Source: Escherichia phage mobillu
DNA length: 64,000 nt
Sequence record: MN850622.1
Reading direction: 5' to 3' (one strand)
Of the stretch, positions 407-31,028 are shown one piece after another. The position numbers were made by a program, and so were the translations under genes. The notes beneath the pieces were generated by a model. That model saw only the letters and a program-made list of their open reading frames with translations, was not told the origin of the DNA and made no database searches. The number at the start of each line of letters is the position of its first letter. Positions within the stretch are counted from its first letter, which is position 1.

Positions 407-1855
407 TTAAGCTGTAGGAAGTTCAACCCATGCACCATCTTTGCGAACATAGAATTTACCGTCTGAAGGAGCATCTTCAATATATCCAGCGTCCTTAAGA
501 GTTTGGATTTCAGCTTCTGCAGCGGCCAAATCAGTTTCAAGAGTAGCAATTCTAGAAGTTAAACCATTAATTGTCATATCATGACTTTTAACTGTAGGCA
601 ATATACCGCGTTCTTCAACAGTCGAACCATTTGGGTTGGTGCCATTTATAAGAGTATTTAATGTGTGTACAGAACCCTTAATTCCTGTGCTATTAGTCCC
701 AACATCAGTTTGAATGTTCTGAATGTCATTACTCATCCCACTGATAGTTCCTTCAAGCTCTCGAGTACGATAAAGCAAAGAGCCGTCTGGTTCCGGTTTC
801 CCACCTGAAGCGTCAACACCAACTACGTTATTTAACCATGACACATTAAAACGCAGTCCTGACGAAGAATCAGAGCCGACAACAGTGTTCAATGCTCCGA
901 TAGCATCAGTATTGAGTTTAATACGTCCTTGGATTGTAGTAGGCAAATCATCGGCGCCAATGGCAGTTTCTACTGTAGTCAAACGAGGTTTAATACCACC
1001 TGATTGATTGAGCTCAAGATTAATGTCGTTTATTGCTGAACTATTTGCATTAGTGGTAGTAATAATAGAAGTCGTATTAGGATACCCAATAGACTGTTTA
1101 ATGCCATCCAAGTCAGCATTTTGACGCGACAAAGTTAAATCAATACTGGAAAGACGACTAAACACCGGAGTAGTGAAAGAAGTACGAGGCCCCATTTCTT
1201 CGCGCAAGTGTTCGACTTCAATAGTTAAAGAGCCAACGTCAGAATCAGCAAATTTAGTTTCTAAATCAGTTAATCGAACACCGTGGTCAACAATTACGGA
1301 GCTATTAGTCATAATACGGCGTTTCATACCAGTGCTATCATTTCCTGGAGTAGGAACCCCATTAATATCTTGACCAGTATATTGTCCTAATTCATTTTTA
1401 ATCCAAAGCAGGTCGTTACGAACAGTTCTATAAACTGAATCTGTTTCCTGATTATAAACACCAATATCATCAGTATTCGCATCAATATGTTCATTCAAAT
1501 CGTTCAATTCACTAGCATGGGTTTGAACTGTGACTTTAATGACATCAATATCTTGGGTGTTCTGGCCTATCTGTGCAAGAGCATCAACATCCCCAGAAAC
1601 ATCTAAAATACCTTGAATAACTTTGATATCTTCATTGGCTGTATTCAAAGAAGATGCTATAGTTTTAATATTAACATCTAACGCTTCTACGTTACGTTGA
1701 ACTTCAACAATAGGACGGTTCATTACACCTTCAGAACCGTATTTTGTGTCAGCACCTGTTATTTCTTCATCGTTTTTAATCCATTCAATACGACTCTGAC
1801 CCGCGTCTGGCGGGCCGTCAACATATGGTAAATCTACCAGAGTTATATCAGCCAT
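407..1855 (-). CDS. wac: fibritin (whisker antigen control) with C-terminal foldon
   Basis: 482 aa; N-term [28 protein letters not shown] and C-term GYIEDAPSDGKFYVRKDGAWVELPTA match recalled T4 fibritin/foldon. Confidence 0.95.
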   Translation of the reverse strand: MADITLVDLPYVDGPPDAGQSRIEWIKNDEEITGADTKYGSEGVMNRPIVEVQRNVEALDVNIKTIASSLNTANEDIKVIQGILDVSGDVDALAQIGQNTQDIDVIKVTVQTHASELNDLNEHIDANTDDIGVYNQETDSVYRTVRNDLLWIKNELGQYTGQDINGVPTPGNDSTGMKRRIMTNSSVIVDHGVRLTDLETKFADSDVGSLTIEVEHLREEMGPRTSFTTPVFSRLSSIDLTLSRQNADLDGIKQSIGYPNTTSIITTTNANSSAINDINLELNQSGGIKPRLTTVETAIGADDLPTTIQGRIKLNTDAIGALNTVVGSDSSSGLRFNVSWLNNVVGVDASGGKPEPDGSLLYRTRELEGTISGMSNDIQNIQTDVGTNSTGIKGSVHTLNTLINGTNPNGSTVEERGILPTVKSHDMTINGLTSRIATLETDLAAAEAEIQTLKDAGYIEDAPSDGKFYVRKDGAWVELPTA

Positions 1856-19618: not shown

Positions 19619-19906
19619 ATGAAAACCTATAAAGAATTTATATCACCTTTTGCTAACGTTTCTACTCTGACCGAAGCAACCCTTACTTCCGAAGTTATTA
19701 AAGCAAATAAAGGACGTGAGGGTAAACCAATGATTAGCCTGGTTGACGGCGAAGAAGTAAAAGGTACTGTTTACTTAGGGGATGGATGGTCTGCTAAGAA
19801 AGACGGCGCTACTATTGTTATCTCTCCGGCAGAAGAGACTGCATTGTTTAAAGCTAAGCATATTTCTGTAGCTCAGCTTAAAATTATTGCAAAAACTCTT
19901 CTGTAA
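19619..19906 (+). CDS. ipI: internal protein I (capsid-targeted, injected; anti-GmrSD in T4)
   Basis: 95 aa; N-terminal capsid targeting sequence MKTYKEFISPFANVSTLTE then ATLTSEVIKANKGREGKPMISLVDGEE... matching recalled T4 IPI; 19-aa propeptide ending LTE. Confidence 0.88.
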   Translation: MKTYKEFISPFANVSTLTEATLTSEVIKANKGREGKPMISLVDGEEVKGTVYLGDGWSAKKDGATIVISPAEETALFKAKHISVAQLKIIAKTLL

Positions 19907-19909
19907 GTA

Positions 19910-19948
19910 GTTTACATCTTGATAGGACTATGTTATAGTAGTCCTATC
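19910..19948 (+). promoter_or_regulatory. PeSL-like early promoter
   Basis: GTTTACA, 17-bp spacer, TATAGT inside perfect 10-bp inverted repeat GATAGGACTA/TAGTCCTATC. Confidence 0.65.
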
Positions 19949-19976
19949 AAAACAAATGAGTAAATGGAGAAATAAA

Positions 19977-20162
19977 ATGAAACGCGCTGAACTGATTCGT
20001 AATGTTGCTGTAGTAATTGCTTCAATGGCTTTTAGTTTTTCGATGTTTGTAGGATTCATTTGCGGACTACTGACAACAACTGAAAATTCTATCTCATTGG
20101 TAGTAGCATTTCTAATCGGTTTAATCGCTATCGTTATGGATAAAATTGCAAAAGGTGAGTAA
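19977..20162 (+). CDS. small hydrophobic (membrane) protein
   Basis: ATG preceded by GGAG SD; hydrophobic core; the upstream in-frame ATG at 19956 lacks an SD. Confidence 0.5.
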   Translation: MKRAELIRNVAVVIASMAFSFSMFVGFICGLLTTTENSISLVVAFLIGLIAIVMDKIAKGE

Positions 20163-20163
20163 A

Positions 20164-20526
20164 ATGAAATATCACGTATATGCGGATTTTGAAGCAAATC
20201 CTTCTAAAGACCCTGATTGTCGTTTGATACGCAAACCATTTGATTCAGCAGCTCAAGCATGGACTTGGATTAAATCTAAATCGCCTGGTTATATGTTCTT
20301 TGAAGTAGTCGATGACAATGGTACACTGCATCCAGAACCTACAGAAACTATTAATTTCCTTATGTTTGCTGGTTACGACTGTTATCCTCTTGGCGGTATT
20401 GACGACCTTGTTGCTACAGGAAAAACTGTTGAGGCTCTTCGCGAAATTTATAAAAACGCAGAAGAAAATTTTGACTGGTATCATATTGTTGATGCTCATA
20501 CCTTTGAAATGGTGGAACATTCATGA
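20164..20526 (+). CDS. hypothetical protein
   Basis: ORF with AGGTGAG SD before the internal ATG; tightly packed with neighbours. Confidence 0.55.
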   Translation: MKYHVYADFEANPSKDPDCRLIRKPFDSAAQAWTWIKSKSPGYMFFEVVDDNGTLHPEPTETINFLMFAGYDCYPLGGIDDLVATGKTVEALREIYKNAEENFDWYHIVDAHTFEMVEHS

Positions 20527-20813
20527 TTCTTTATGCTAAAGTATCGTCCATTGAGAATGGATACGAAAGCGATCAACGTGCAGCTAAAGCACTAGTCGAT
20601 GACTACGGTATTCTGACTAACTTTGAGGTTGAAAAGGTTTATATCGACCGTTCATCTTCGCAAGTTAAATTACTCTGTGAAGACGGTAAATTTAACACAG
20701 TTAACTTTGATTTCTTTATTGAAACAGAAAAAGGCCCTCTTGAATATGATATTTTCAAGAATCCTTTGAAATTACGTTGCATTGAATATAATTACATTAA
20801 TATGGTACGGTGA
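20523..20813 (+). CDS. hypothetical protein
   Basis: ORF with ATGA start/stop overlap. Confidence 0.55.
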   Translation: MILYAKVSSIENGYESDQRAAKALVDDYGILTNFEVEKVYIDRSSSQVKLLCEDGKFNTVNFDFFIETEKGPLEYDIFKNPLKLRCIEYNYINMVR

Positions 20814-20817
20814 GTAA

Positions 20818-21333
20818 ATGAATATTTGTTTAGGCAGTACAATTCCTAAGGGTTACGTAATTGATGTCACTACTTGGGAAAATGACGGCGACAACTATAA
20901 AACTAAAACGTTGTTTGGTGTAGAAGAGCATGAGCTCCAACAGTTTAAATATCTCTTGAAGAAATTTAAGAGCCGTCATTCTAGCACCAAAGCCGAACGT
21001 TATTGCGGTAATACACCATTCAGTGATTGCTCGCTTTTAATCTATGAATACCTGGTTGAAGGACTGTTCTCAGACCAACTCCATCCGGAATTTATTAAAA
21101 AGGTCTTTGGTGTCGAAGTAGACCTTGGTGATAAATCTGAAGAAGACGAAGCCCGTGTATTCGACCTGTTCTTTGTGAAAGGCGATGAGATATCTCAAGG
21201 ACTTATTGATATTCTTGGCTATGCTTCTGAATATTATGATTACGATTTCTTGCGTGTAGTTGAACGTGTCGAATTTGCTTATATTGAAAAAGAAATTGTT
21301 TTGCCAACCGTTAAAATGGTTGATTTGCTTTAA
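20818..21333 (+). CDS. hypothetical protein
   Basis: 171 aa ORF, acidic, phage-typical codon usage. Confidence 0.6.
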   Translation: MNICLGSTIPKGYVIDVTTWENDGDNYKTKTLFGVEEHELQQFKYLLKKFKSRHSSTKAERYCGNTPFSDCSLLIYEYLVEGLFSDQLHPEFIKKVFGVEVDLGDKSEEDEARVFDLFFVKGDEISQGLIDILGYASEYYDYDFLRVVERVEFAYIEKEIVLPTVKMVDLL

Positions 21334-21412
21334 GAATTATGTGTTATTATTAATTCATACCCTCTATTACCAAAGGTGCTCTAAAGTGCCTTTCATAATA
21401 GAAAGTTATTAA

Positions 21413-21487
21413 GGCCCTGTAGCTCAATGGGAGAGCTGTCAGCTCATAACTGATAGGTAGCTGGATCGAAACCAGCCAGGGCCACCA
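21413..21487 (+). tRNA. tRNA with CAU anticodon (Met or lysidine-type Ile; T4 synteny suggests Ile)
   Basis: Cloverleaf by hand: acceptor GGCCCTG/CAGGGCC, D arm GCTC-AATGGGA-GAGC, anticodon arm GTCAG-CTCATAA-CTGAT, T arm GCTGG-ATCGAAA-CCAGC, encoded CCA. Confidence 0.75.
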
Positions 21488-21490
21488 ATC

Positions 21491-21567
<77 letters not shown>

Positions 21568-21585
21568 ACTTCAAGTGAGGAAAAT

Positions 21586-21930
21586 ATGAAAGGCAATATT
21601 TATCTGGTAGTTCATGACTTAACGTTTTATTTTAACGAACGTGAAACAGTTATTTCCGATAGGTTAATTAATTCATTATATCAACATGCTGATTATGTTT
21701 ATTTTCAAAATGAATTCGGACATTGGAAGTTTCTTAAAAACCGTTCAGGGTTAACTAGTTTTGAATACTTTGACCGTAAAGACCTTTTAAACGAAATTCC
21801 ATTACAACATCGGTTCCAGAAACGCGAATCACTATACTATTGTCGTCATATACCAAATGCTGAATGTGTTAATGAAGCGATTAATCTATGGCGTCGGCGT
21901 CGAGAGCAAATTGATGATATGCCAAAATAA
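21586..21930 (+). CDS. hypothetical protein between tRNAs and stable-RNA candidate
   Basis: ATG MKGNIYLVVHDL... with GAGG SD; the track's upstream extension overlaps tRNA-Arg. Confidence 0.55.
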   Translation: MKGNIYLVVHDLTFYFNERETVISDRLINSLYQHADYVYFQNEFGHWKFLKNRSGLTSFEYFDRKDLLNEIPLQHRFQKRESLYYCRHIPNAECVNEAINLWRRRREQIDDMPK

Positions 21931-22039
21931 GAAGCCGGGTCGCTACCGGCAAGTCGTCGGACTGATGTTCCCTGAGTAAGGACTGGTCTTAATAAATCTT
22001 TACGATTTGTTAATATCCCCTTACATCACAGCAGAAACG

Positions 22040-22190
22040 GCGCACCGAATTATCGATTCGAGGAAATATCTTTGCCGTAAGCCGAGTAGCGTTTTTGACG
22101 GAACGTTCGGATATGGTCGAGATATGGCCTTTTAAAAATATTGAGTAGCGTCAACTGCTTAATAACCGGGTTCGAATCCCGGCGTTTCGT
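22040..22190 (+). ncRNA. candidate small stable RNA with tRNA-like 3' domain (possible counterpart of T4 species 1/2 RNAs)
   Basis: GC-rich non-coding stretch; canonical T arm CCGGG-TTCGAAT-CCCGG (22165-22181) followed by acceptor-like CGTTTCG able to pair with CGGAACG at 22098; a full cloverleaf could not be folded by hand. Confidence 0.35.
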
Positions 22191-22242
22191 ACAAACACTC
22201 GCCTTAGCAGGTGGAACCCCGACAAGGTTGCCGCAAGGCTTA

Positions 22243-22269
22243 GCCCCTTCCGAAAGGTCGGGGCTTTTT
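22243..22269 (+). terminator. intrinsic terminator
   Basis: AGCCCC-TTCCGAAAGG-TCGGGGCT hairpin followed by TTTTT. Confidence 0.7.
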
Positions 22270-22276
22270 GGCATAA

Positions 22277-22285
22277 TAATAAATA
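22277..22285 (+). promoter_or_regulatory. late-promoter-like box TAATAAATA
   Basis: One mismatch to TATAAATA; same 9-mer recurs before e and gene 49; followed by palindrome AAGTTAATTAACTT. Confidence 0.4.
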
Positions 22286-22314
22286 GATAAGTTAATTAAC
22301 TTAGGAAAAGCAAC

Positions 22315-22779
22315 ATGAAATCATACGCTGAATTTTTGACTGAACAATCTAGTTCAGATGTAAAAGCCGCTGCGATTGCAGCAATTCAAGCAGGTAAATA
22401 TTCTTACAAAGACGCCTCTGATGAAGAACGTTTCCGTTTTATTAGAGATTTTAAAGCCGAAGGTTTTACTAATGCTAATACTGTTAGCCGAGTTTTTAAA
22501 AGCCTAGCTGCATCAGGTGAATTGTTCCAGAAAGCTACAGGTAAAGCACCTGCGCCAAAAACAGACCCTAAAGCAGCTCAAGAAAAAAATATCGCCAAAG
22601 GAATTATTTCTAAGTATGAAGCAATTCTTAAAGAGCTTTTAGTAATCAAAACAGAAGGCCAGAAACTGGCACGAGCACATAGCTTCAAAGATAATCCTCA
22701 CGCTCATAGCCTTGAGTATGTTGAAGATATCCAAAAACTTATTAAAGACCGTATCTGGTCTGCTAAACAAATTAAATAA
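22315..22779 (+). CDS. internal-protein-like, capsid-targeting sequence at N-terminus
   Basis: 154 aa; N-terminus MKSYAEFLTE matches the IP capsid targeting sequence consensus (MKTYQEFI.E) with LTE cleavage motif. Confidence 0.65.
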   Translation: MKSYAEFLTEQSSSDVKAAAIAAIQAGKYSYKDASDEERFRFIRDFKAEGFTNANTVSRVFKSLAASGELFQKATGKAPAPKTDPKAAQEKNIAKGIISKYEAILKELLVIKTEGQKLARAHSFKDNPHAHSLEYVEDIQKLIKDRIWSAKQIK

Positions 22780-22785
22780 TAGAAT

Positions 22786-22812
22786 GCCCCTTCCTTATGG
22801 TTGGGGCCTTTT
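22786..22812 (+). terminator. intrinsic terminator
   Basis: GCCCC-TTCCTTATGGTT-GGGGC hairpin then CTTTTGG. Confidence 0.6.
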
Positions 22813-22845
22813 GGTATCTAGGGCATAAAAATATTTCATAAAGAT

Positions 22846-22892
22846 GTTTACTTCTTCTAAGGACATGATACTATAGACTTATCAACCATAGA
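22846..22892 (+). promoter_or_regulatory. PeSL-like early promoter
   Basis: GTTTAC, -10 TACTAT, partial inverted repeat reaching the SD. Confidence 0.55.
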
Positions 22893-22902
22893 GGAAAATG
22901 TT

Positions 22903-23406
22903 ATGAGTCTTTACACTGAACTGAATAAAAAATCTGAAGAATCTGCTGAAACTATTTTTAAAAACGTGCAAAAGCGTATTTTGGAAAAGATGTACGATGC
23001 AGCATCTAAAGGTGAAAAATCTTGCCGGTTTCCGATGAGGTGTTCTTCTGATTTATGCGCAAATACTATTGAATGGCTGGAAAGTGAAGGTCTTACGGTA
23101 GAGAAAAACCCGGCGACTTCTATTGACGGCGAATCATATATTAGTATTTCTTGGGATAAATCAAGGGTAGAAGAGAAAGATGGTGATTGGGTTGTAGATG
23201 TTAAAACTTCTGATGGTGGACGTTCTGTTGAAGTTTCGGCTGTAGTTAAAGGTACCCACGAACAAAGGACTTGGGGTTGGGGTGGTGAAGAAAAAGAAAT
23301 TGTTCTTAGTGTGATTGCCAGGTCAACTAGTAATAAAATTGCACAAAGCATCATTGACGCTGCAATTGCTGAAGCAGAAAAAATTTGCAAAATTAAAAAT
23401 AAATGA
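22903..23406 (+). CDS. hypothetical protein
   Basis: 167 aa charged protein after GAGGAAAA SD; fully antisense ORF 22911..23420 judged artefactual. Confidence 0.6.
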   Translation: MSLYTELNKKSEESAETIFKNVQKRILEKMYDAASKGEKSCRFPMRCSSDLCANTIEWLESEGLTVEKNPATSIDGESYISISWDKSRVEEKDGDWVVDVKTSDGGRSVEVSAVVKGTHEQRTWGWGGEEKEIVLSVIARSTSNKIAQSIIDAAIAEAEKICKIKNK

Positions 23407-23455
23407 TGTACAAACGCCAAGGATGGTGGTACTATAGACTTATCAACTACAGAGG
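23406..23455 (+). promoter_or_regulatory. PeSL-like early promoter
   Basis: TGTACA -35 variant, 17-bp spacer, TACTAT; downstream arm contains GAGGAG SD. Confidence 0.55.
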
Positions 23456-23464
23456 AGTAACAAA

Positions 23465-23629
23465 ATGACTACTTTAATTATTTGGTTCGATGAAAATGAA
23501 GAAACATACTGTGTGAATATTGATGAAAGTCCAATGCCTGAATTTGAATCCTCGGATAAAAACTCTGTTGTATCTTGGGCTGAAGGTTATAAAGCAGCTA
23601 AAGGTGACGTTGAAATAATTTACATCTAA
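23465..23629 (+). CDS. small hypothetical protein (54 aa)
   Basis: ATG 8 nt after GAGGAG; below the 60-aa track cutoff. Confidence 0.4.
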   Translation: MTTLIIWFDENEETYCVNIDESPMPEFESSDKNSVVSWAEGYKAAKGDVEIIYI

Positions 23630-23660
23630 GTAAGTTTATGTTATAGTAGTCCTATCAAAT
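23617..23660 (+). promoter_or_regulatory. PeSL-like early promoter
   Basis: TTTACA, 17-bp spacer, TATAGT, right arm TAGTCCTATC. Confidence 0.55.
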
Positions 23661-24575: not shown

Positions 24576-24597
24576 GGAGGACTCCGGTCCTCCTTTT
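24576..24597 (+). terminator. intrinsic terminator
   Basis: GGAGGACT-CC-GGTCCTCC hairpin then TTTT. Confidence 0.7.
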
Positions 24598-24616
24598 GGA
24601 TAATAAAGGAGTTAAC

Positions 24617-25219
24617 ATGCGAAACCAAAATAATGATATTGACTCAATGTTCGAAGAGTTCCGAGATAAGGTAAATCCACCTACGTCTTTAGTTGATTCA
24701 TTACGATATGTTGCAACCGGACGTAAATGGTACTGGTCGTCTTCTTATGAGACCACCGAGAAAACGGCTAGCCATAGCAGAAAATCTTTATTAGCCCCAG
24801 GTATTATGATTCATGATATCGGAGCTATTGCTAAACTAGTTGCAGACCATGATATTAGATTCACTGATTTCGTTGCTCCTACGTGGTCTGTTTGTTGTTT
24901 AAACACTGAATGGGAATATATCAGCGAACGCTCTGAAGATTATTATGGCTTTAGAGATAAGCTTCTGAGGTCTAATATGTTTTATATCGATACAGAAGTT
25001 CTAGTCGATAATAAAAAATATTACTTTACGTTAATCATCGATTCTGAAACTATGTATGAAGGCAAGCCTTTGCTTAAAAGAGTTGATGCTTTAAGTGCTA
25101 TTGATGCGCTTTATGAAACTATGGTTGTTAGTCCTAATTTCACTAACAATTTAATCCTTGAGCAATTTATTATGGAATGTAGAGAATATGTCAAAGCCAA
25201 CCCTATACATGCCAAGTAA
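24617..25219 (+). CDS. hypothetical protein
   Basis: ATG MRNQNNDIDSMFEEF... after AAGGAG SD. Confidence 0.6.
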   Translation: MRNQNNDIDSMFEEFRDKVNPPTSLVDSLRYVATGRKWYWSSSYETTEKTASHSRKSLLAPGIMIHDIGAIAKLVADHDIRFTDFVAPTWSVCCLNTEWEYISERSEDYYGFRDKLLRSNMFYIDTEVLVDNKKYYFTLIIDSETMYEGKPLLKRVDALSAIDALYETMVVSPNFTNNLILEQFIMECREYVKANPIHAK

Positions 25220-25583
25220 GCCCTGGGCGTATGAATACAAGCGTAAATTAATCCCAAATGAAGTACTATTTGGCCCTATTTTAGCTTTAGCATTTTTAAT
25301 CTTTATGATTATAGGAGCTGTTTTAGATTCTAGTGAAGTTATATCGTCTGATGCAGCATTTTCATTAATGTTCGTCGCACCACTTATTGTACCGTTTTTA
25401 TTAATGCCTATTAATTGGGTAGGATATTGGCACCAAGGCCGTCATCACAGAGCCCGATTAAGAGAATGGAAAGTTCAGTGCGCAAAAGCCCAAGCTCAGT
25501 ATGATGAAGCTGTTAAAAAGTATGAATATGAAGAAGCTATGGAATTCGTTAAGGAAATAAGATGCAAAAGCCTCAACTCTTAA
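25188..25583 (+). CDS. small membrane protein, C-terminal ...EFVKEIR family
   Basis: Hydrophobic segments; start uncertain (overlaps upstream gene). Confidence 0.45.
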   Translation: MSKPTLYMPSKPWAYEYKRKLIPNEVLFGPILALAFLIFMIIGAVLDSSEVISSDAAFSLMFVAPLIVPFLLMPINWVGYWHQGRHHRARLREWKVQCAKAQAQYDEAVKKYEYEEAMEFVKEIRCKSLNS

Positions 25584-25921
25584 CCGTATGGCCTTCTCTT
25601 GGTGAGAACATTCTAATTTTTATTATGAGTATTGGCATGGGATTTGCCTTTGGATTAGTTGGATTTCTTATTGACGGCGTTGTGTTAGGATTTATAGGGA
25701 ACACTGGTGGATTCACAGACCAATGGCAGGACTTACGGTATACCCAAGCCTTTGCATCCATCGCATCATTTTGTACTGTAGTCTATTTTTACTACGATTT
25801 TATAAACCATAACAAGAAAAATAAAAAGATTTACGCTTCTCAAATGATTAGTTATAATGAACTTCTAGCTAAACGTGAAAATGAAACAATCGAAAACTTT
25901 ATTAAGGAATGTAGAAAATGA
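25562..25921 (+). CDS. small membrane protein, C-terminal ENFIKECR family
   Basis: ATG after AGGAAATAAG; two predicted TM stretches; conserved C-terminus shared with 28339 and 29540 ORFs. Confidence 0.55.
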   Translation: MQKPQLLTVWPSLGENILIFIMSIGMGFAFGLVGFLIDGVVLGFIGNTGGFTDQWQDLRYTQAFASIASFCTVVYFYYDFINHNKKNKKIYASQMISYNELLAKRENETIENFIKECRK

Positions 25922-26223
25922 GTAAGATTATTGAAATTAAAGTACCAGAGTTTAATGATGCCAAATCCGCTTCAGATGCAATTTATAAACTTCTGAATCA
26001 AGCTGAACGTATCGAAGAAGAAGCAACAAAGATCGCAGACCAATATGCCGTATCATTTTCTGTAGGTGATTATGGTAGCGGTCGTACTTATTATCCTAAG
26101 GGTGAAATCGTATCCCAGTGGATGAAAGATGAAATTGAAAATAATGGTGGCGATGTTAAGCGTGAAGGTAATGGTTACGTTATTACTGAAGGTGCTTGGG
26201 TTTCGTCTTCTGCGTTGTGCTAA
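25918..26223 (+). CDS. small protein, tandem paralogue 1 (C-terminal GWVSSS..C)
   Basis: 101 aa; C-terminus EGAWVSSSALC; ATGA overlap with upstream gene. Confidence 0.6.
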   Translation: MSKIIEIKVPEFNDAKSASDAIYKLLNQAERIEEEATKIADQYAVSFSVGDYGSGRTYYPKGEIVSQWMKDEIENNGGDVKREGNGYVITEGAWVSSSALC

Positions 26224-26232
26224 GGAATCGTT

Positions 26233-26505
26233 ATGTCTAAAGAACAAACCGAACTGGCTGAAGCTGTAGCAAAAATCTATGCAGCTATTGAGGCTGCCAA
26301 AGAAATTGCTGATAAACAAAACACAACATTCAACTTGTACCCAGCTTATGGTATGGGTGGAACCTATCATTCACCCGGACATCTTAAAGCCGATCTTGAA
26401 CGTTGTACAAAAAACGGCTATGCTGAATGGGCTGACGTTTACCAATACGACTACAACCTGAGCCTCGAAACCGGTGGTTGGGTCGCATCTTCTCACACTT
26501 GCTAA
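26233..26505 (+). CDS. small protein, tandem paralogue 2
   Basis: 90 aa; C-terminus GGWVASSHTC; junction TGCTAAGGAA shared with paralogue 1. Confidence 0.6.
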   Translation: MSKEQTELAEAVAKIYAAIEAAKEIADKQNTTFNLYPAYGMGGTYHSPGHLKADLERCTKNGYAEWADVYQYDYNLSLETGGWVASSHTC

Positions 26506-26514
26506 GGAAACAAT

Positions 26515-26712
26515 ATGTCTCGTGAATTAGATTGTGCTGTACGTACGGCAGTAGCTGCTCTGGAAAACCTGTTCCAAATTGCAACAGAAGAACGCGAAGA
26601 AGTTACATTATGGATTGAAGATAACGCAGGTCTGAATCTCCAGGACGCGATCTCATTATCCCACAATAGTATCACTGTTCAAGGCTGGGTATCATCTAGT
26701 TATTCTTGCTAA
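26515..26712 (+). CDS. small protein, tandem paralogue 3
   Basis: 65 aa; C-terminus QGWVSSSYSC. Confidence 0.55.
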   Translation: MSRELDCAVRTAVAALENLFQIATEEREEVTLWIEDNAGLNLQDAISLSHNSITVQGWVSSSYSC

Positions 26713-27042: not shown

Positions 27043-27999
27043 ATGTTGTTAGTTATTGGTTCTCGTGCACTTCACTATCACGGTCTTATTGATTCTAGCG
27101 CTATTAAAAATAGTGATTGGGACTTTATTGCGGACCAAGGTTCTTGGAATGCATTCAAAAATCAAATGATGGGTGTATATGTTCACCAAGATAACCCTGA
27201 TGTCCAAGTTTTCAAATGCTTCCATAATGGACGCGAAACTCATTTTGAAGCATACATCGTTCCGGCTATCACTAACGTTCGCGAACTAGTCGGTGAACTC
27301 ACTCCTGAAGATTTCACGTCTTCTTATGACCTTTTAAAATACGCCAAGAAAAATTTGGCTAAAGACCGTTTGAACGGGTTTTACTGGGCAACTCCTGAGA
27401 TATGTCTTGCAATTAAGATGTCTCATCGTTTCAAGAAAAATAATCCATTCTTTTTAAAGACTATGAACCATATTCAGTATCTTCGTGGTAAAGGTGTTAC
27501 ACTGAACGATGAACTTACTGAAATTATGCTGAAACGCCAGAAAGAAACCTTGAATTATGCTCACCCAGTTCTTGACACTTCTAAAAGTGCGTTCTTTAAA
27601 GATGACATCTATACGTATGACCATGATACTATCCATGAAGCCATTGCACTAACTGACCAGCCTGCTTATAAGTTTTATATGAAAGAAGGCTCAGAAGTTA
27701 TGACATCACGCGAGAAGTTCGAATCATTACCAGAAATGGTTAAATTAGCCGGTGTATATGAAGAAGCTTGTGTATTAGCTCTTGAACGTTCACAGATTCC
27801 TAACGACTTTAAAATCCATCCACGTGATAGTTTTATGATGGCCCTTGAAAAGGTCTGTACATCAATCACATCAGGATGGTTCCGTGAGTTCGCTTGGGAA
27901 AATTATAGCAAAGTAGTAAGTATGTACCAAAGCTTAGGACACGACGATTACGTCAAGCGTTTCAAACAAAACTTTCATATGGTAAAACCTTTCAAATAA
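27043..27999 (+). CDS. hypothetical protein with nucleotidyltransferase-like N-terminal motif
   Basis: 318 aa; N-terminus VIGSRALHYHGLIDSSAIKNSDWDF resembles the G-S...D-x-D Pol-beta NTase signature (spacing longer than typical). Confidence 0.6.
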   Translation: MLLVIGSRALHYHGLIDSSAIKNSDWDFIADQGSWNAFKNQMMGVYVHQDNPDVQVFKCFHNGRETHFEAYIVPAITNVRELVGELTPEDFTSSYDLLKYAKKNLAKDRLNGFYWATPEICLAIKMSHRFKKNNPFFLKTMNHIQYLRGKGVTLNDELTEIMLKRQKETLNYAHPVLDTSKSAFFKDDIYTYDHDTIHEAIALTDQPAYKFYMKEGSEVMTSREKFESLPEMVKLAGVYEEACVLALERSQIPNDFKIHPRDSFMMALEKVCTSITSGWFREFAWENYSKVVSMYQSLGHDDYVKRFKQNFHMVKPFK

Positions 28000-28011
28000 T
28001 TTCACAAAACA

Positions 28012-28050
28012 GTTTACAAGGTCTGTAGTTGTTGATACTATAGACCTATC
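28012..28050 (+). promoter_or_regulatory. PeSL-like early promoter
   Basis: GTTTACA, 17 bp, TACTAT, inverted repeat around -10. Confidence 0.6.
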
Positions 28051-28079
28051 AAAACAAATGAGTGAATGGAGATATAAAA

Positions 28080-28280
28080 ATGACTACTTTGAATAAACGT
28101 TTCGGTAAAGCTAAACCTGGTTGTGCAGCAGAACGTCGTTATGTTTTCGCTCAGTTAGAAGATGTAGAGTATCAGATTAATCAAGTTCACATTACTGGTA
28201 TCGAGCCTATGTGTGGCCTTGAAGCTCTTCGTGAAGTTCGTGATGGGTATCGTCGTGACATCGAAGAAATGTCAAAATAA
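28080..28280 (+). CDS. hypothetical protein
   Basis: ATG MTTLNKRFGKAKPG... after TGGAGA SD. Confidence 0.5.
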   Translation: MTTLNKRFGKAKPGCAAERRYVFAQLEDVEYQINQVHITGIEPMCGLEALREVRDGYRRDIEEMSK

Positions 28281-28320
28281 GTGTACAAACTGATAGGACT
28301 ATGTTATAGTAGTCCTATTA
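28281..28320 (+). promoter_or_regulatory. PeSL-like early promoter
   Basis: TGTACA, TATAGT, inverted repeat GATAGGACTA/TAGTCCTAT. Confidence 0.6.
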
Positions 28321-28338
28321 AAACATGAGGAGAATATT

Positions 28339-28644
28339 ATGAAATTAGGCGAAACCAACCGAATTGGTCTTTTAACAATATTTGTATCACTTTTTTACGC
28401 AGCTCTTTCTGTTGCAGTATTACAAAAGGCTTACAGTATGGATGGTGTTCCTGGTTTTGTATTCTTATCGCCGTTTTTGCTATTCGTTGGAGCATTGTTA
28501 TTATATGCCACGACTAGTTTCGACCATAACGTCTGGGTCAATTATAAATGTAAATTGTCTGAAGAAGAACACGCAGAAGCTCGTAAAAAAGCTATTGAAT
28601 CTACCAATCTAGAAAATTTCATTAAAGAATGTCGAGGAAAATAA
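28339..28644 (+). CDS. small membrane protein, C-terminal ENFIKECR family
   Basis: 101 aa, two hydrophobic helices, C-terminus NLENFIKECRGK. Confidence 0.6.
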   Translation: MKLGETNRIGLLTIFVSLFYAALSVAVLQKAYSMDGVPGFVFLSPFLLFVGALLLYATTSFDHNVWVNYKCKLSEEEHAEARKKAIESTNLENFIKECRGK

Positions 28645-28645
28645 T

Positions 28646-29332
28646 ATGAATAGTTCTAAAGTGTTTAATAGTCAAGCTCGTGCAGTTGGTAGTTTTGCAC
28701 ATAACGTACAAAATGACCGAATCAAAAATGAACCAATGTTCTTTAATTGTGATTTGGGTTTTGCTTGGGATAATGGTGGCTCAATCACTCGTAGCTTTAT
28801 TGCCAATCTCCCAATTGATTGGACTAATCAACATGTTGTATTTGATTCTCGGGTTCATATGCTGATGCCTGGGTGGTATCCTGCTATCCCTGGATACCAC
28901 CATGACGATGTTCCTCGCCCTGATATTCCAGTTGGTCAACACTTTATTACTGCAGGACAACCTGACTATGACAACCCTCGTTACCATTCTGAACATATTC
29001 TTGGTCTTGTTAACGCTGACGTGTGTCCTACTCATTTTGCAACAGGAACTGCAGAGTTCAGTCAGATTCCTGATGGCGAACTTATCTATCGCCAGTGGCA
29101 CAAAGAAGTCCTCGAAAAAATTGAAAAAGGTGAACTAGAGAAATGGGAAGCTCCAGACCGTACTCTTCTTCAGTTTGATTGGCAAACATGGCACACTGGT
29201 TCTCGTGCAATTAGTAATGGATGGCGTTGGTTCGGACGTGTATCTCGTAATACAGACCGAGTTAAAAAGATTACCAATGAAATTCGTGTCAACGCTCAAG
29301 TTTATCTGGAATTCCCTATGGAAGGCTGGTAA
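28646..29332 (+). CDS. hypothetical protein; candidate 2OG-Fe(II) oxygenase fold
   Basis: 228 aa; GYHHDDVP (HxD-like) and WHTGSRAISNGWRWFGRVS (His then R-x-S about 12-15 residues later); motif-level only. Confidence 0.6.
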   Translation: MNSSKVFNSQARAVGSFAHNVQNDRIKNEPMFFNCDLGFAWDNGGSITRSFIANLPIDWTNQHVVFDSRVHMLMPGWYPAIPGYHHDDVPRPDIPVGQHFITAGQPDYDNPRYHSEHILGLVNADVCPTHFATGTAEFSQIPDGELIYRQWHKEVLEKIEKGELEKWEAPDRTLLQFDWQTWHTGSRAISNGWRWFGRVSRNTDRVKKITNEIRVNAQVYLEFPMEGW

Positions 29333-29613
29333 TGATTAACAAAACATATTGGTCTAATATAGACGACGGCAATAAAGGTATTTCATACTATTCAATAGAT
29401 TGGACAGGATGTCCATCCTACTTAGTTAAACGTATTTGCCAAGAATTTAAAATCGACCAGCCAGCAGGTATTATCGTGAACAGATACATTAACGGTTATC
29501 AACCTATCGATGAAGTAATACGAACAACTCAAGCTGATCTTGAAAAGTTTTTCAATAAGTGCCAATGGATCGCAGGATGGATTATATTTGTACCATCGGT
29601 ATGGTTTTTTTAG
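29332..29613 (+). CDS. hypothetical protein with hydrophobic C-terminus
   Basis: 93 aa; ends at a T7 homopolymer overlapping the next reading frame. Confidence 0.55.
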   Translation: MINKTYWSNIDDGNKGISYYSIDWTGCPSYLVKRICQEFKIDQPAGIIVNRYINGYQPIDEVIRTTQADLEKFFNKCQWIAGWIIFVPSVWFF

Positions 29614-29824
29614 TACTAAGGTGAGTTCTTTCGGTTTTGTTGATATTATTGCTATCTTATTAGCATCTACTATCGTAAGTATTATTGGTGGCATCATTGG
29701 CGGCGGCACTGTCGCTATCATTATTAATCTTATTAAAAGTAGTTTACAAGAACATAAAGACAAGATAAAAGCCAAGAATAATGAAGTTGAACGTTTTATT
29801 ACCGAATGCAGGAATTTGAGATGA
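29540..29824 (+). CDS. ENFIKECR-family C-terminal module; start undefined (possible frameshift fusion with 29332 ORF)
   Basis: Frame has TM segment and C-terminus NNEVERFITECRNLR but no ATG near the previous gene's stop; GTG at 29621 possible. Confidence 0.4.
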   Translation: MKSFSISANGSQDGLYLYHRYGFFSTKVSSFGFVDIIAILLASTIVSIIGGIIGGGTVAIIINLIKSSLQEHKDKIKAKNNEVERFITECRNLR

Positions 29825-30057
29825 GTATAGCAATTTACATTAAATCAGAATCATGTGATAGTTATCTGTACACATACGATAAAGATGTGTCAGAAGAAAA
29901 AATCAAAGACGACCTTAATATGGACCTTGATATGTTCTGTCCTATTGCAGATTACAAACTTGCGGTCTCTAATAGTGAAAGTCCATCTAAAGAAACGCGC
30001 ATTGAAGAATTTATGTCCGAATTAATGGCCAAATCATGGGACCGAGTTGATGAGTAA
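29821..30057 (+). CDS. hypothetical acidic protein
   Basis: ATG MSIAIYIKSES... with ATGA overlap. Confidence 0.5.
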   Translation: MSIAIYIKSESCDSYLYTYDKDVSEEKIKDDLNMDLDMFCPIADYKLAVSNSESPSKETRIEEFMSELMAKSWDRVDE

Positions 30058-30505
30058 GAAAAATAAAGTGAAAGAACTATCAGCCGGTATTATTTTCCTT
30101 ACCGAAGATAAAGAATTATTCATGGGGCGTGTAACTGGTTCTCGTCCTAAAGGTGCATTAACTCATCGGTGGGATATTCCTAAAGGACGTGTCGAACCTG
30201 GCGAATCTCCTATTGAAGCCGCTATTCGTGAATGCGAAGAAGAAACTGGGTTTACACAATATGACCCTGCCTTCCTGAAAGACCTAGGTGAACATCATTA
30301 CTCAGACAATAAGAATATTCATCTGTTCCTATATACCATCCCTGTAGAGCACGAGCAATTCAGAAACAGTGTTTGTAATTCATATCATACATTCCCAGAC
30401 GGACGACAGATTCCTGAATTTGATGCATTCGCTTTAATTAAACCTTCTCAATGGGAATATGTAATGGGCAAATCATTATATAAGGTGCTCACTACACTCC
30501 TATAA
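30047..30505 (+). CDS. nudE: Nudix hydrolase
   Basis: 152 aa; Nudix box GRVEPGESPIEAAIRECEEETGF; position next to e as in T4. Confidence 0.9.
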   Translation: MMSKKNKVKELSAGIIFLTEDKELFMGRVTGSRPKGALTHRWDIPKGRVEPGESPIEAAIRECEEETGFTQYDPAFLKDLGEHHYSDNKNIHLFLYTIPVEHEQFRNSVCNSYHTFPDGRQIPEFDAFALIKPSQWEYVMGKSLYKVLTTLL

Positions 30506-30506
30506 G

Positions 30507-30537
30507 TAATAAATACCTCCTATAAACGTGGGAGGTA
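30507..30537 (+). promoter_or_regulatory. late-promoter-like TAATAAATA plus SD-sequestering hairpin upstream of e
   Basis: TACCTCC-(TATAAACGTG loop)-GGAGGTA stem-loop encloses the GGAGG SD of the lysozyme gene, as in the known T4 e regulation. Confidence 0.65.
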
Positions 30538-30539
30538 TT

Positions 30540-31028
30540 ATGAATATATTTGAAATGCTTCGTAATGACGAAGGTCTTAGACTGACTTTATACAAAGACA
30601 CTGAAGGCTTTTGGACGATTGGCATAGGCCATTTAGTAACAAAGAACCCGTCTTTAGCCGTAGCTAAAGCTGAACTTGACAGAATGATCGGTCGTAAATG
30701 CAACGGTACAATTACCCTTGATGAGGCTGAAAAGCTATTTAATGAAGACGTTGATAAAGCCGTCCGCGGAATCTTGGGTAATGCTAAACTTAAACCGGTA
30801 TATGATTCTTTAGATGCAGTTCGTCGGTGTGCATTGGTCAATATGGTCTTCCAAATGGGTGTAGCAGGCGTCGCTGGTTTTACTAATTCTCTTCGTATGC
30901 TTCAACAGAAACGTTGGGATGAAGCGGCAGTAAATCTAGCCCAATCTAAATGGTATCGTCAGACACCTAATCGCGCGAAACGCGTAATCTCAACATTTAA
31001 AACAGGAACTTGGAAAGCGTATATATGA
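30540..31028 (+). CDS. e: endolysin (T4 lysozyme)
   Basis: [39 protein letters not shown]... near-identical to recalled T4 lysozyme. Confidence 0.96.

Follow-up and report, generated by a model that had tools for sequence, protein, structure and literature searches.

A seven-T tract in the e.2 membrane-protein gene of a Mosigvirus phage as a probable +1 slippage allele

Streisinger-type hot spots in T4, the A6 and T6 runs of rII and e, are 6-nt homopolymers in which the phage replisome recurrently adds or drops one nucleotide. A change of the same kind is found in gene e.2 of the phage DNA analyzed here, a stretch of 64 kb referred to below as the window. However, the classical hot spots were described in laboratory mutants, while the e.2 change is a standing polymorphism in field isolates and metagenomes that probably arose by slippage. 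A 2025 preprint reports that repeats of at least 6 nt in T2, T4 and T6 carry frameshift variants at about 3e-4, that their reversion is 1,000- to 10,000-fold faster than that of point mutations, and that the agt and rIIA repeats act as contingency loci with host-defence trade-offs (Gomez, Barrick & Waters, 10.1101/2025.10.21.683753). The e.2 locus resembles these in having a repeat of at least 6 nt in a T-even-type ORF with frameshift variants in populations, and it falls in the 'hypothetical' gene class that is enriched for such repeats (10.1101/2025.10.21.683753). Unlike them, e.2 is known as a variable locus from sequence variants alone, and its secondary lesions suggest decay.

In prfB (RF2), the P-site tRNA re-pairs in the +1 direction at CUU_UGA_C, next to an A-site stop. 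The known stimulator of such a shift is a Shine-Dalgarno (SD) sequence three bases upstream of the shift codon. The e.2 site offers a comparable re-pairing next to a stop, but lacks the SD 3 nt upstream, the autoregulatory logic and the conservation of prfB. Stops such as CCC_UGA are also shifty, and more than 1% frameshifting occurs in half of the E. coli genes ending with CCC_UGA (PMC5009743). In transcriptional slippage genes, for example T. thermophilus dnaX (A9) and the A/T runs of IS elements, an A/T homopolymer joins two frames as at e.2; however, those runs are conserved and 8-9 nt or longer, whereas the e.2 run is 7 nt long and a minority state. Selection against, or use of, A/T runs for transcriptional slippage is evident from about 9 nt in many bacteria (PMC1088944). 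In the 'savior indel' of herpes simplex TK (G7), as at e.2, a homopolymer indel knocks a gene out and rare slippage may give a trace of product (PMC5009743), but e.2 has no known selective agent or residual activity.

A homologous parallel is T4 e.2 (Y06M_BPT4), which is split at the end of TM1 and its loop by a 1-nt homopolymer change and whose N-terminal fragment is annotated as the gene. As annotated (NC_000866), T4 e.2 is 309 nt and 102 aa long and is followed by 161 'intergenic' bases before nudE, which still encode ...NNFITECRKLK* (the locus is 1092-1561, minus strand, of the extracted NC_000866 66400-69000). Phage T6 and vB_Eco-B1.1 have one 489-nt ORF (162 aa), as does the majority of the 516 Tequatrovirus records that match. 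T4 has gone from A6 to A5 in a run that starts two bases 3' of its own T6 run (TACTTTTTTAT-AAAAAT), whereas the Mosigvirus lesion is T6 to T7. A re-sequenced T4 clone does not have the additional T (TATCTAGGG) found in the older T4 reference. The annotated T4 e.2 is thus the N-terminal fragment of a 162-aa gene, and the type phage itself has its protein broken where the window has, by a lesion of the same kind.

The source phage of the window belongs to the T4-like genus Mosigvirus (RB69 group). Of the 239 GenBank phage records that match the 1.8 kb around the site, vB_Eco_NicPhage (NicPhage) ranks first, at 99.8%. The features of the site are as follows.

29332-29824, + strand: gene e.2 (RB69 e.2 homologue; phrog_2203; PF26896 Phage_T4_Y06M), 493 nt with a +1 frameshift inside, against 492 nt in the reference layout, which is the single CDS of NicPhage and Shigella phage Shf125875.
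29332-29613, + strand: N-terminal fragment ORF, 93 aa, with a cytoplasmic N-domain and TM1, ending in ...PSVWFF*; identical to QHR72684.1 (mobillu).
29574-29581, + strand: SD-like AGGATGGA within e.2 codons (A-G-W-I), 6 nt upstream of TTG 29588.
29588-29824, + strand: C-terminal fragment ORF, 78 aa from TTG, with the loop, TM2 and the C-terminal helix containing FITECR; identical to QHR72685.1.
29605-29611, no strand assigned: T7 homopolymer and frameshift site, the ancestral T6 (Phe-Phe codons 92-93) plus one T.
29611-29613, + strand: TAG stop that results from the insertion; UUU UAG could act here as a 'shifty stop' at which tRNA-Phe rarely re-pairs in the +1 frame, a mechanism we infer from known prfB-type sites (PMC5009743).
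29621-29623, + strand: GTG without an SD, proposed as an alternative start in the initial annotation and used in the annotations of AV116 and HAX4052703.1.
29810-29823, + strand: AGGAA in the E-C-R-N codons and ATG 29821 (ATGA overlap), the ribosome-binding site and start of the next gene (RB69ORF130c homologue).

Read directly in the window, 29590-29625 is GTACCATCGGTATGG TTTTTTT AGTACTAAGGTGAG. In the frame of ATG 29332, the codons TGG (29602) TTT TTT TAG close the 93-aa ORF. The +1 frame has an ORF at 29540-29824 that is open across the seven T's, contains no ATG, and encodes a hydrophobic segment upstream of its end, ...ERFITECRNLR. Such runs are rare in this DNA: A/T homopolymers of at least 7 nt are strongly depleted window-wide, with 4 observed against 45.6 +/- 7.0 expected under a first-order Markov model. 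The e.2 run is the only T7 in the window, which has 52 A/T runs of exactly six.

The two ORFs are the halves of one protein. Against phrog_2203 ('membrane protein', 166 positions; PHROGs), the 93-aa ORF covers profile positions 1-97 (1.2e-30) and the downstream module positions 103-166 (2.2e-17), and only together do they match the e.2 family profile over its whole length. PF26896 (Phage_T4_Y06M) is recorded for both halves in precomputed Pfam annotations and appears there alone, as a local Pfam-A search with the fused protein gave no match. Removal of one T gives a 163-aa protein that is 100% identical to NicPhage e.2. The orthologues are single reading frames, of 492 nt in NicPhage, 492 nt in Shf125875 (annotated 'membrane protein, similar to RB69 e.2') and 480 nt in KAW3E185. 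The window therefore carries a disrupted member of the e.2 family, since the N-domain, the two TM helices and the C-terminal motif are all present but split over two frames, while they form single proteins in the relatives. The initial annotation had described a T7 run at the overlap of two frames, the upstream one ending in TGG TTT TTT TAG and the next one open across the run without an ATG, and had proposed that a fusion would give the architecture of other family members; all of this agrees with the sequence and with the comparison to NicPhage and the distant members.

The e.2 family is small, with only 12 clusters at 50% identity in an exhaustive HMMER search. Its distant members are single polypeptides of 143-195 aa that are 24-30% identical to the first alignment row (P0001). 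They share an N-domain with invariant W7, D11, G16 and W24, two hydrophobic helices, and a C-terminal [FW]IxxCR[KN] motif with invariant I156, C159 and R160. The Phe-Phe at the position of the T-run is not kept in them. A structure model of moderate confidence (pLDDT 70), used solely for placing the break, gives a helical hairpin with helix 67-96, loop 97-101 and helix 102-161, and the T-run is predicted to fall at the end of helix 67-96 (TM1), just ahead of the short loop to TM2. Since the distant members are single polypeptides and the break lies at the loop, the one-gene architecture is ancestral and the window version is cut at the TM1-TM2 loop. A literature search on the function of T4 e.2 gave nothing usable.

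Comparison of the orthologous locus, suggested in the initial annotation, shows that the two-ORF layout is not conserved. In about 124 of 128 GenBank relatives, T6 lies within a single uninterrupted ORF of 159-163 aa, and NicPhage, Shf125875, KAW3E185 and LF82-1 have six T's at the aligned position against seven in the window. To find +1 alleles, the window's contiguous +1-frame peptide across the run was used as a tblastn probe, which aligns in one piece only to +1 alleles. It matched 128 GenBank records, four of them in one piece, and T7 was confirmed in the DNA of all four. These are AV109, AV114 and AV116 from Danish pig waste, which are related to one another and count as one event, and vB_EcoM_G2285 (G2285) from German manure. 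No extra base was present in the 92 records matching an 80-nt probe (0/92), and trans-frame tblastn probes of the same kind found no -1 or +2 alleles in GenBank. Analogous control probes for the A6 runs of two neighbouring ORFs (29115 and 29897) gave 168 and 126 matching records, respectively, with not one +1 allele among them. As nearly all of these relatives have T6 in one ORF, and as NicPhage encodes the exact fusion, the T7 is a +1 insertion allele and not a conserved recoding site. It lies on a sequence block that otherwise hardly differs from the T6 block of NicPhage.

In a collection of 15 billion proteins, those with only the C-terminal module form a 13-member cluster, and their N-termini reveal variants of the tract. 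The T7 allele has at least five different left-flank haplotypes (MYHRYGFF, MYRRYGFF, MYRLYGFF, MYHQCGFF and MYRQCGFF) and at least three right-flank haplotypes. A T8 allele is found in 20 metagenome contigs (DNA checked in six), and a -1 allele, T4C, is derived from T5C, which is an in-frame synonymous variant; the natural tract states are then T4C, T5C, T6, T7 and T8. Repeated slippage seems more parsimonious than a single origin spread by recombination, because T7 carriers differ from one another in the sequence immediately 5' as well as immediately 3' of the run. Proteins with 'MVFSTKV' had been candidates for T5 alleles and were rejected, their DNA being T4C with the deletion in a T5C background. 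An IMG/VR scan with exact T7 and variable-length patterns returned only a pair of related contigs, which carry T6 and duplicate phages already in GenBank, and a JGI metagenome scan returned three contigs (T6, T6 and T5C), too few for a frequency estimate. As a separate observation, the zero frame of the T8 contigs (L022-L027) reads U_UUU_UUA, the -1 slippery heptamer of HIV-1 gag-pol, and a -1 shift there would restore e.2.

We consider it highly probable that the T7 run makes this copy of e.2, an accessory membrane-protein gene, a +1 frameshift allele that arose by slippage, is expressed mainly in two pieces, and recurs since the gene is dispensable. Slipped-strand mispairing during DNA replication at the in-frame T6 (TTT TTT, Phe92-Phe93 at the end of TM1) would add one T and place a TAG directly after the run, leaving e.2 to be expressed mainly as two pieces. 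The first would be the 93-aa fragment with the N-domain and TM1, and the second, possibly, the 78-aa fragment with TM2 and the FITECR helix from TTG 29588. Full-length e.2 would be only a minor by-product of +1 re-pairing of peptidyl-tRNA-Phe on UUU_UAG or, alternatively, of an RNA polymerase slip that drops one U, and no feature of the sequence is designed to favour either route. The T7 allele would persist and recur because e.2 is dispensable and is repeatedly lost or split in T-even phages.

The lesions around the T-run bear on this dispensability. In an alignment of 18 related loci to 28281-30600, all 1-nt indels that break the frame, the T-run among them, fall in e.2 and none in nudE or the homologues of RB69ORF133c, 132c and 130c; the loci entered the set by way of their e.2 defects, which makes this contrast suggestive and not quantitative. 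LF82-1 has a -1 change at about 29354 plus a deletion, the locus L028 has a +T at about 29356, AV109/114 have a +G at about 29456, and in G2285 the start of e.2 is missing along with the ORF132c homologue. Forms truncated at the N-terminus, of 132 and 115 aa, are also common, while all variants seen keep the ORF of the C-terminal half intact. The locus thus shows what is expected of a frameshift pseudogene, namely an intact orthologue in close relatives, a single indel that explains the defect, and independent further disabling lesions in related lineages (AV109/114, L028, LF82-1, G2285 and T4). The extra lesions in the N-terminal half of several T7 lineages point to decay or loss of a dispensable e.2, and as the second lesions would not be rescued by a slip at the T-run, they argue against a required fusion product in those lineages. 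As opposed to simple decay, the intact C-terminal half and the persistence of frameshift alleles in diverged mosaic genomes could mean that the split form keeps a function or is selected. The last e.2 codons, GAA TGC AGG AA, carry the SD of the next gene, which begins with an ATG that overlaps the stop of e.2, and this embedded ribosome-binding site may explain why the 3' end is intact in all variants.

The G2285 deletion (MK327933, at about 700-800 of locus L018) runs from just past the stop of the RB69ORF133c homologue to the first e.2 codons. It removes all 228 aa of the ORF132c homologue, so G2285 can do without this protein.

Several small ORFs of the window end in related ways. Those at 24596-25219, 25158-25583, 25562-25921, 28339-28644 and 29332-29824, mostly predicted membrane proteins, share a terminal [FV][IV]xE[CI]R motif. 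The codons of this motif (AAGGAATGTAGA, GAATGTCGAGGAAA and GAATGCAGGAA) contain the SD of the next gene, whose ATG follows about 5-12 nt on, so that protein motif and ribosome-binding site are superimposed. Three tandem ORFs at 25918-26223, 26233-26505 and 26515-26712 (101, 90 and 65 aa) share a terminal GWV(S/A)SSxxC motif and look like a local paralogue family.

The alternative that survives best, although we regard it as unlikely, is that the T6/T7/T8 tract is kept for fast, reversible slippage that switches e.2 off and on, with T7 as the OFF state, as bet-hedging in the face of a host factor that either senses e.2 or depends on it. The locus has a simple repeat of at least 6 nt in its coding region, T6 in relatives and T7 here, and repeat-length variants from T4C to T8 among related genomes and populations. 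The five natural tract states with their many haplotypes, the near-identical sequence blocks that carry either T6 or T7, and the control A6 runs of neighbouring ORFs without +1 alleles are all consistent with such switching, as are the fast-mutating and reverting T-even repeats with their agt and rIIA trade-offs (10.1101/2025.10.21.683753). However, e.2 has no known phenotype or host factor, and the e.2 T6 run in T4 had 0 variant reads in 1,400-2,450 (10.1101/2025.10.21.683753). The irreversible second lesions in T7 lineages also look like decay and not like switching. Moreover, TTT is the preferred Phe codon in an AT-rich genome, so that a T6 needs no special explanation, and distant family members have no Phe-Phe at this position. 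It is therefore improbable that the Phe-Phe tract is a true contingency locus in which T6<->T7/T8 changes toggle between a fused and a split or null membrane protein under host-dependent selection. If it were, e.2 would harm the phage on some hosts, for example by triggering a defence system, and benefit it on others, and the A6-to-A5 split in T4 would be the same switch in its OFF state.

A functional gene fission, in which the fragments are translated separately from ATG 29332 and TTG 29588 and either reassemble in the membrane or each work alone, depends on how the downstream module starts. TTG 29588 is preceded by AGGAUGGA (29574-81), with an anti-SD duplex of -6.5 kcal/mol and a spacing of 6. 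Genuine starts in the neighbourhood have -4.3 to -11.5 kcal/mol, and the 5th percentile of random positions is -5.9. The values are -2.2 kcal/mol for GTG 29621 and -0.4 kcal/mol for TTG 29540. TTG 29588 is also the annotated start in mobillu, AV109/114 and G2285. These values contradict the earlier view that the +1 frame has no SD, and with the GenBank annotation they overturn the claim that the module must start at GTG 29621, a codon that could only serve re-initiation, 8 nt after the TAG. The C-terminal fragment from TTG 29588 would be the most plausible independent translation unit. A fission would fit with this SD, which is as good as those of real genes, with the break exactly at the short loop between the TM1 and TM2 helices of the model, with the intact C-fragment ORF in all frameshift alleles, and with the 102-aa N-fragment ORF kept by T4. 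However, the SD-like string is probably fortuitous, because it is part of conserved TM1 codons in all alleles. Furthermore, the N-fragments have been secondarily destroyed in AV109/114, L028 and G2285, the C-terminal part in T4 is without a start and out of frame in the reference sequence, and the model that places the break has only moderate confidence. Taken with these points, a fission appears very unlikely.

Programmed recoding, as a prfB-like +1 shift at UUU_UAG or as RNA polymerase slippage, would make the slip the normal route to full-length e.2, as the initial annotation had proposed for either the ribosome or the polymerase. The re-pairing of tRNA-Phe one base 3' (UUU to UUU) is perfect and has a stop in the A site, and the fusion would be the exact wild-type protein. 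However, the site and its two-frame layout are not conserved, and neither kind of stimulatory element, an SD or a 3' stem-loop or pseudoknot, is present. The 20 nt including the run pair with the anti-SD at only -2.2 kcal/mol, so the SD stimulator for a +1 shift is absent, and the 69-109 nt downstream have no RNA structure beyond that of shuffled sequences (z = -0.26 to -0.03). For the polymerase, the 7-nt run is below the length for efficient transcriptional slippage, about 9 nt (8 in some bacteria), and in its minority state it is not the conserved, long-enough A/T run of a programmed site. With the second frameshifts in AV109/114 and L028 beyond rescue by any slip at the T-run, a programmed slip is scarcely credible. 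Trace amounts of full-length e.2 from unprogrammed leakage are nevertheless plausible, because tRNA-Phe can re-pair from UUU to UUU with UAG in the A site and comparable shifty stops leak.

That the T7 is a sequencing or assembly error in a phage with T6 is highly improbable, even though homopolymers are a classic site of indel errors and the e.2 of the closest relative differs by that base alone. Mobillu (MN850622) is the probable source genome, and its sequence comes from Illumina NextSeq reads that were put together with CLC and SPAdes (PMC7552041). An exact-sequence look-up identifies the 93-aa and 78-aa ORFs with its two proteins, both annotated 'putative membrane protein [Escherichia phage mobillu]'. 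In the 64-kb alignment to NicPhage, in which the first 19,955 bases of the window are gap-free, no lone 1-nt homopolymer indel other than the T7 falls in well-conserved coding DNA, so the sequence shows no general pattern of homopolymer errors. Independent assemblies of other samples carry an identical T7 (Logan SRR11871167, Logan SRR15410108, ENA ERZ10407628 with a contig of 169,948 bp at 22x coverage, and a TPA E. coli assembly, HAX4052704.1), and so do the Illumina-based isolates of two other laboratories (AV109/114/116 and G2285). The SRR11871167 contig is a different phage, 98.3% identical to the window over 6.3 kb without gaps. Between these two phages, the 2.2-kb block 27853-30046, which contains e.2 with its T7, has 2 mismatches while the flanks have dozens, and it is a mosaic recombination block. 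The T7 allele is thus real and heritable.

The alignment to NicPhage also shows a divergent region at 19900-23650, with tRNA-Met (21413-21487) and tRNA-Arg (21491-21567), where identity is 87-92% with many indels, against about 98.5% in the remainder. Unaligned gaps lie at about 22290-22786 and 23449-23639, and NicPhage has an additional 9-nt repeat unit (CCTACAGAA) at about 20347.

Collectively, the T7 in e.2 is a textbook Streisinger-type homopolymer frameshift in a T-even-type phage that already stands in GenBank as two CDSs, and it adds no new recoding mechanism. The paired 'putative membrane protein' CDSs of this phage, AV109/114/116 and G2285 should be annotated as one frameshifted e.2, and the 102-aa 'e.2' of T4 together with the 'intergenic' DNA before nudE as a broken 162-aa gene. 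The e.2 tract is a homopolymer length polymorphism in natural populations, which fits the claim of repeat-driven standing frameshift diversity (10.1101/2025.10.21.683753). As a gene that is repeatedly discarded or split, e.2 is a candidate for host-defence panels.
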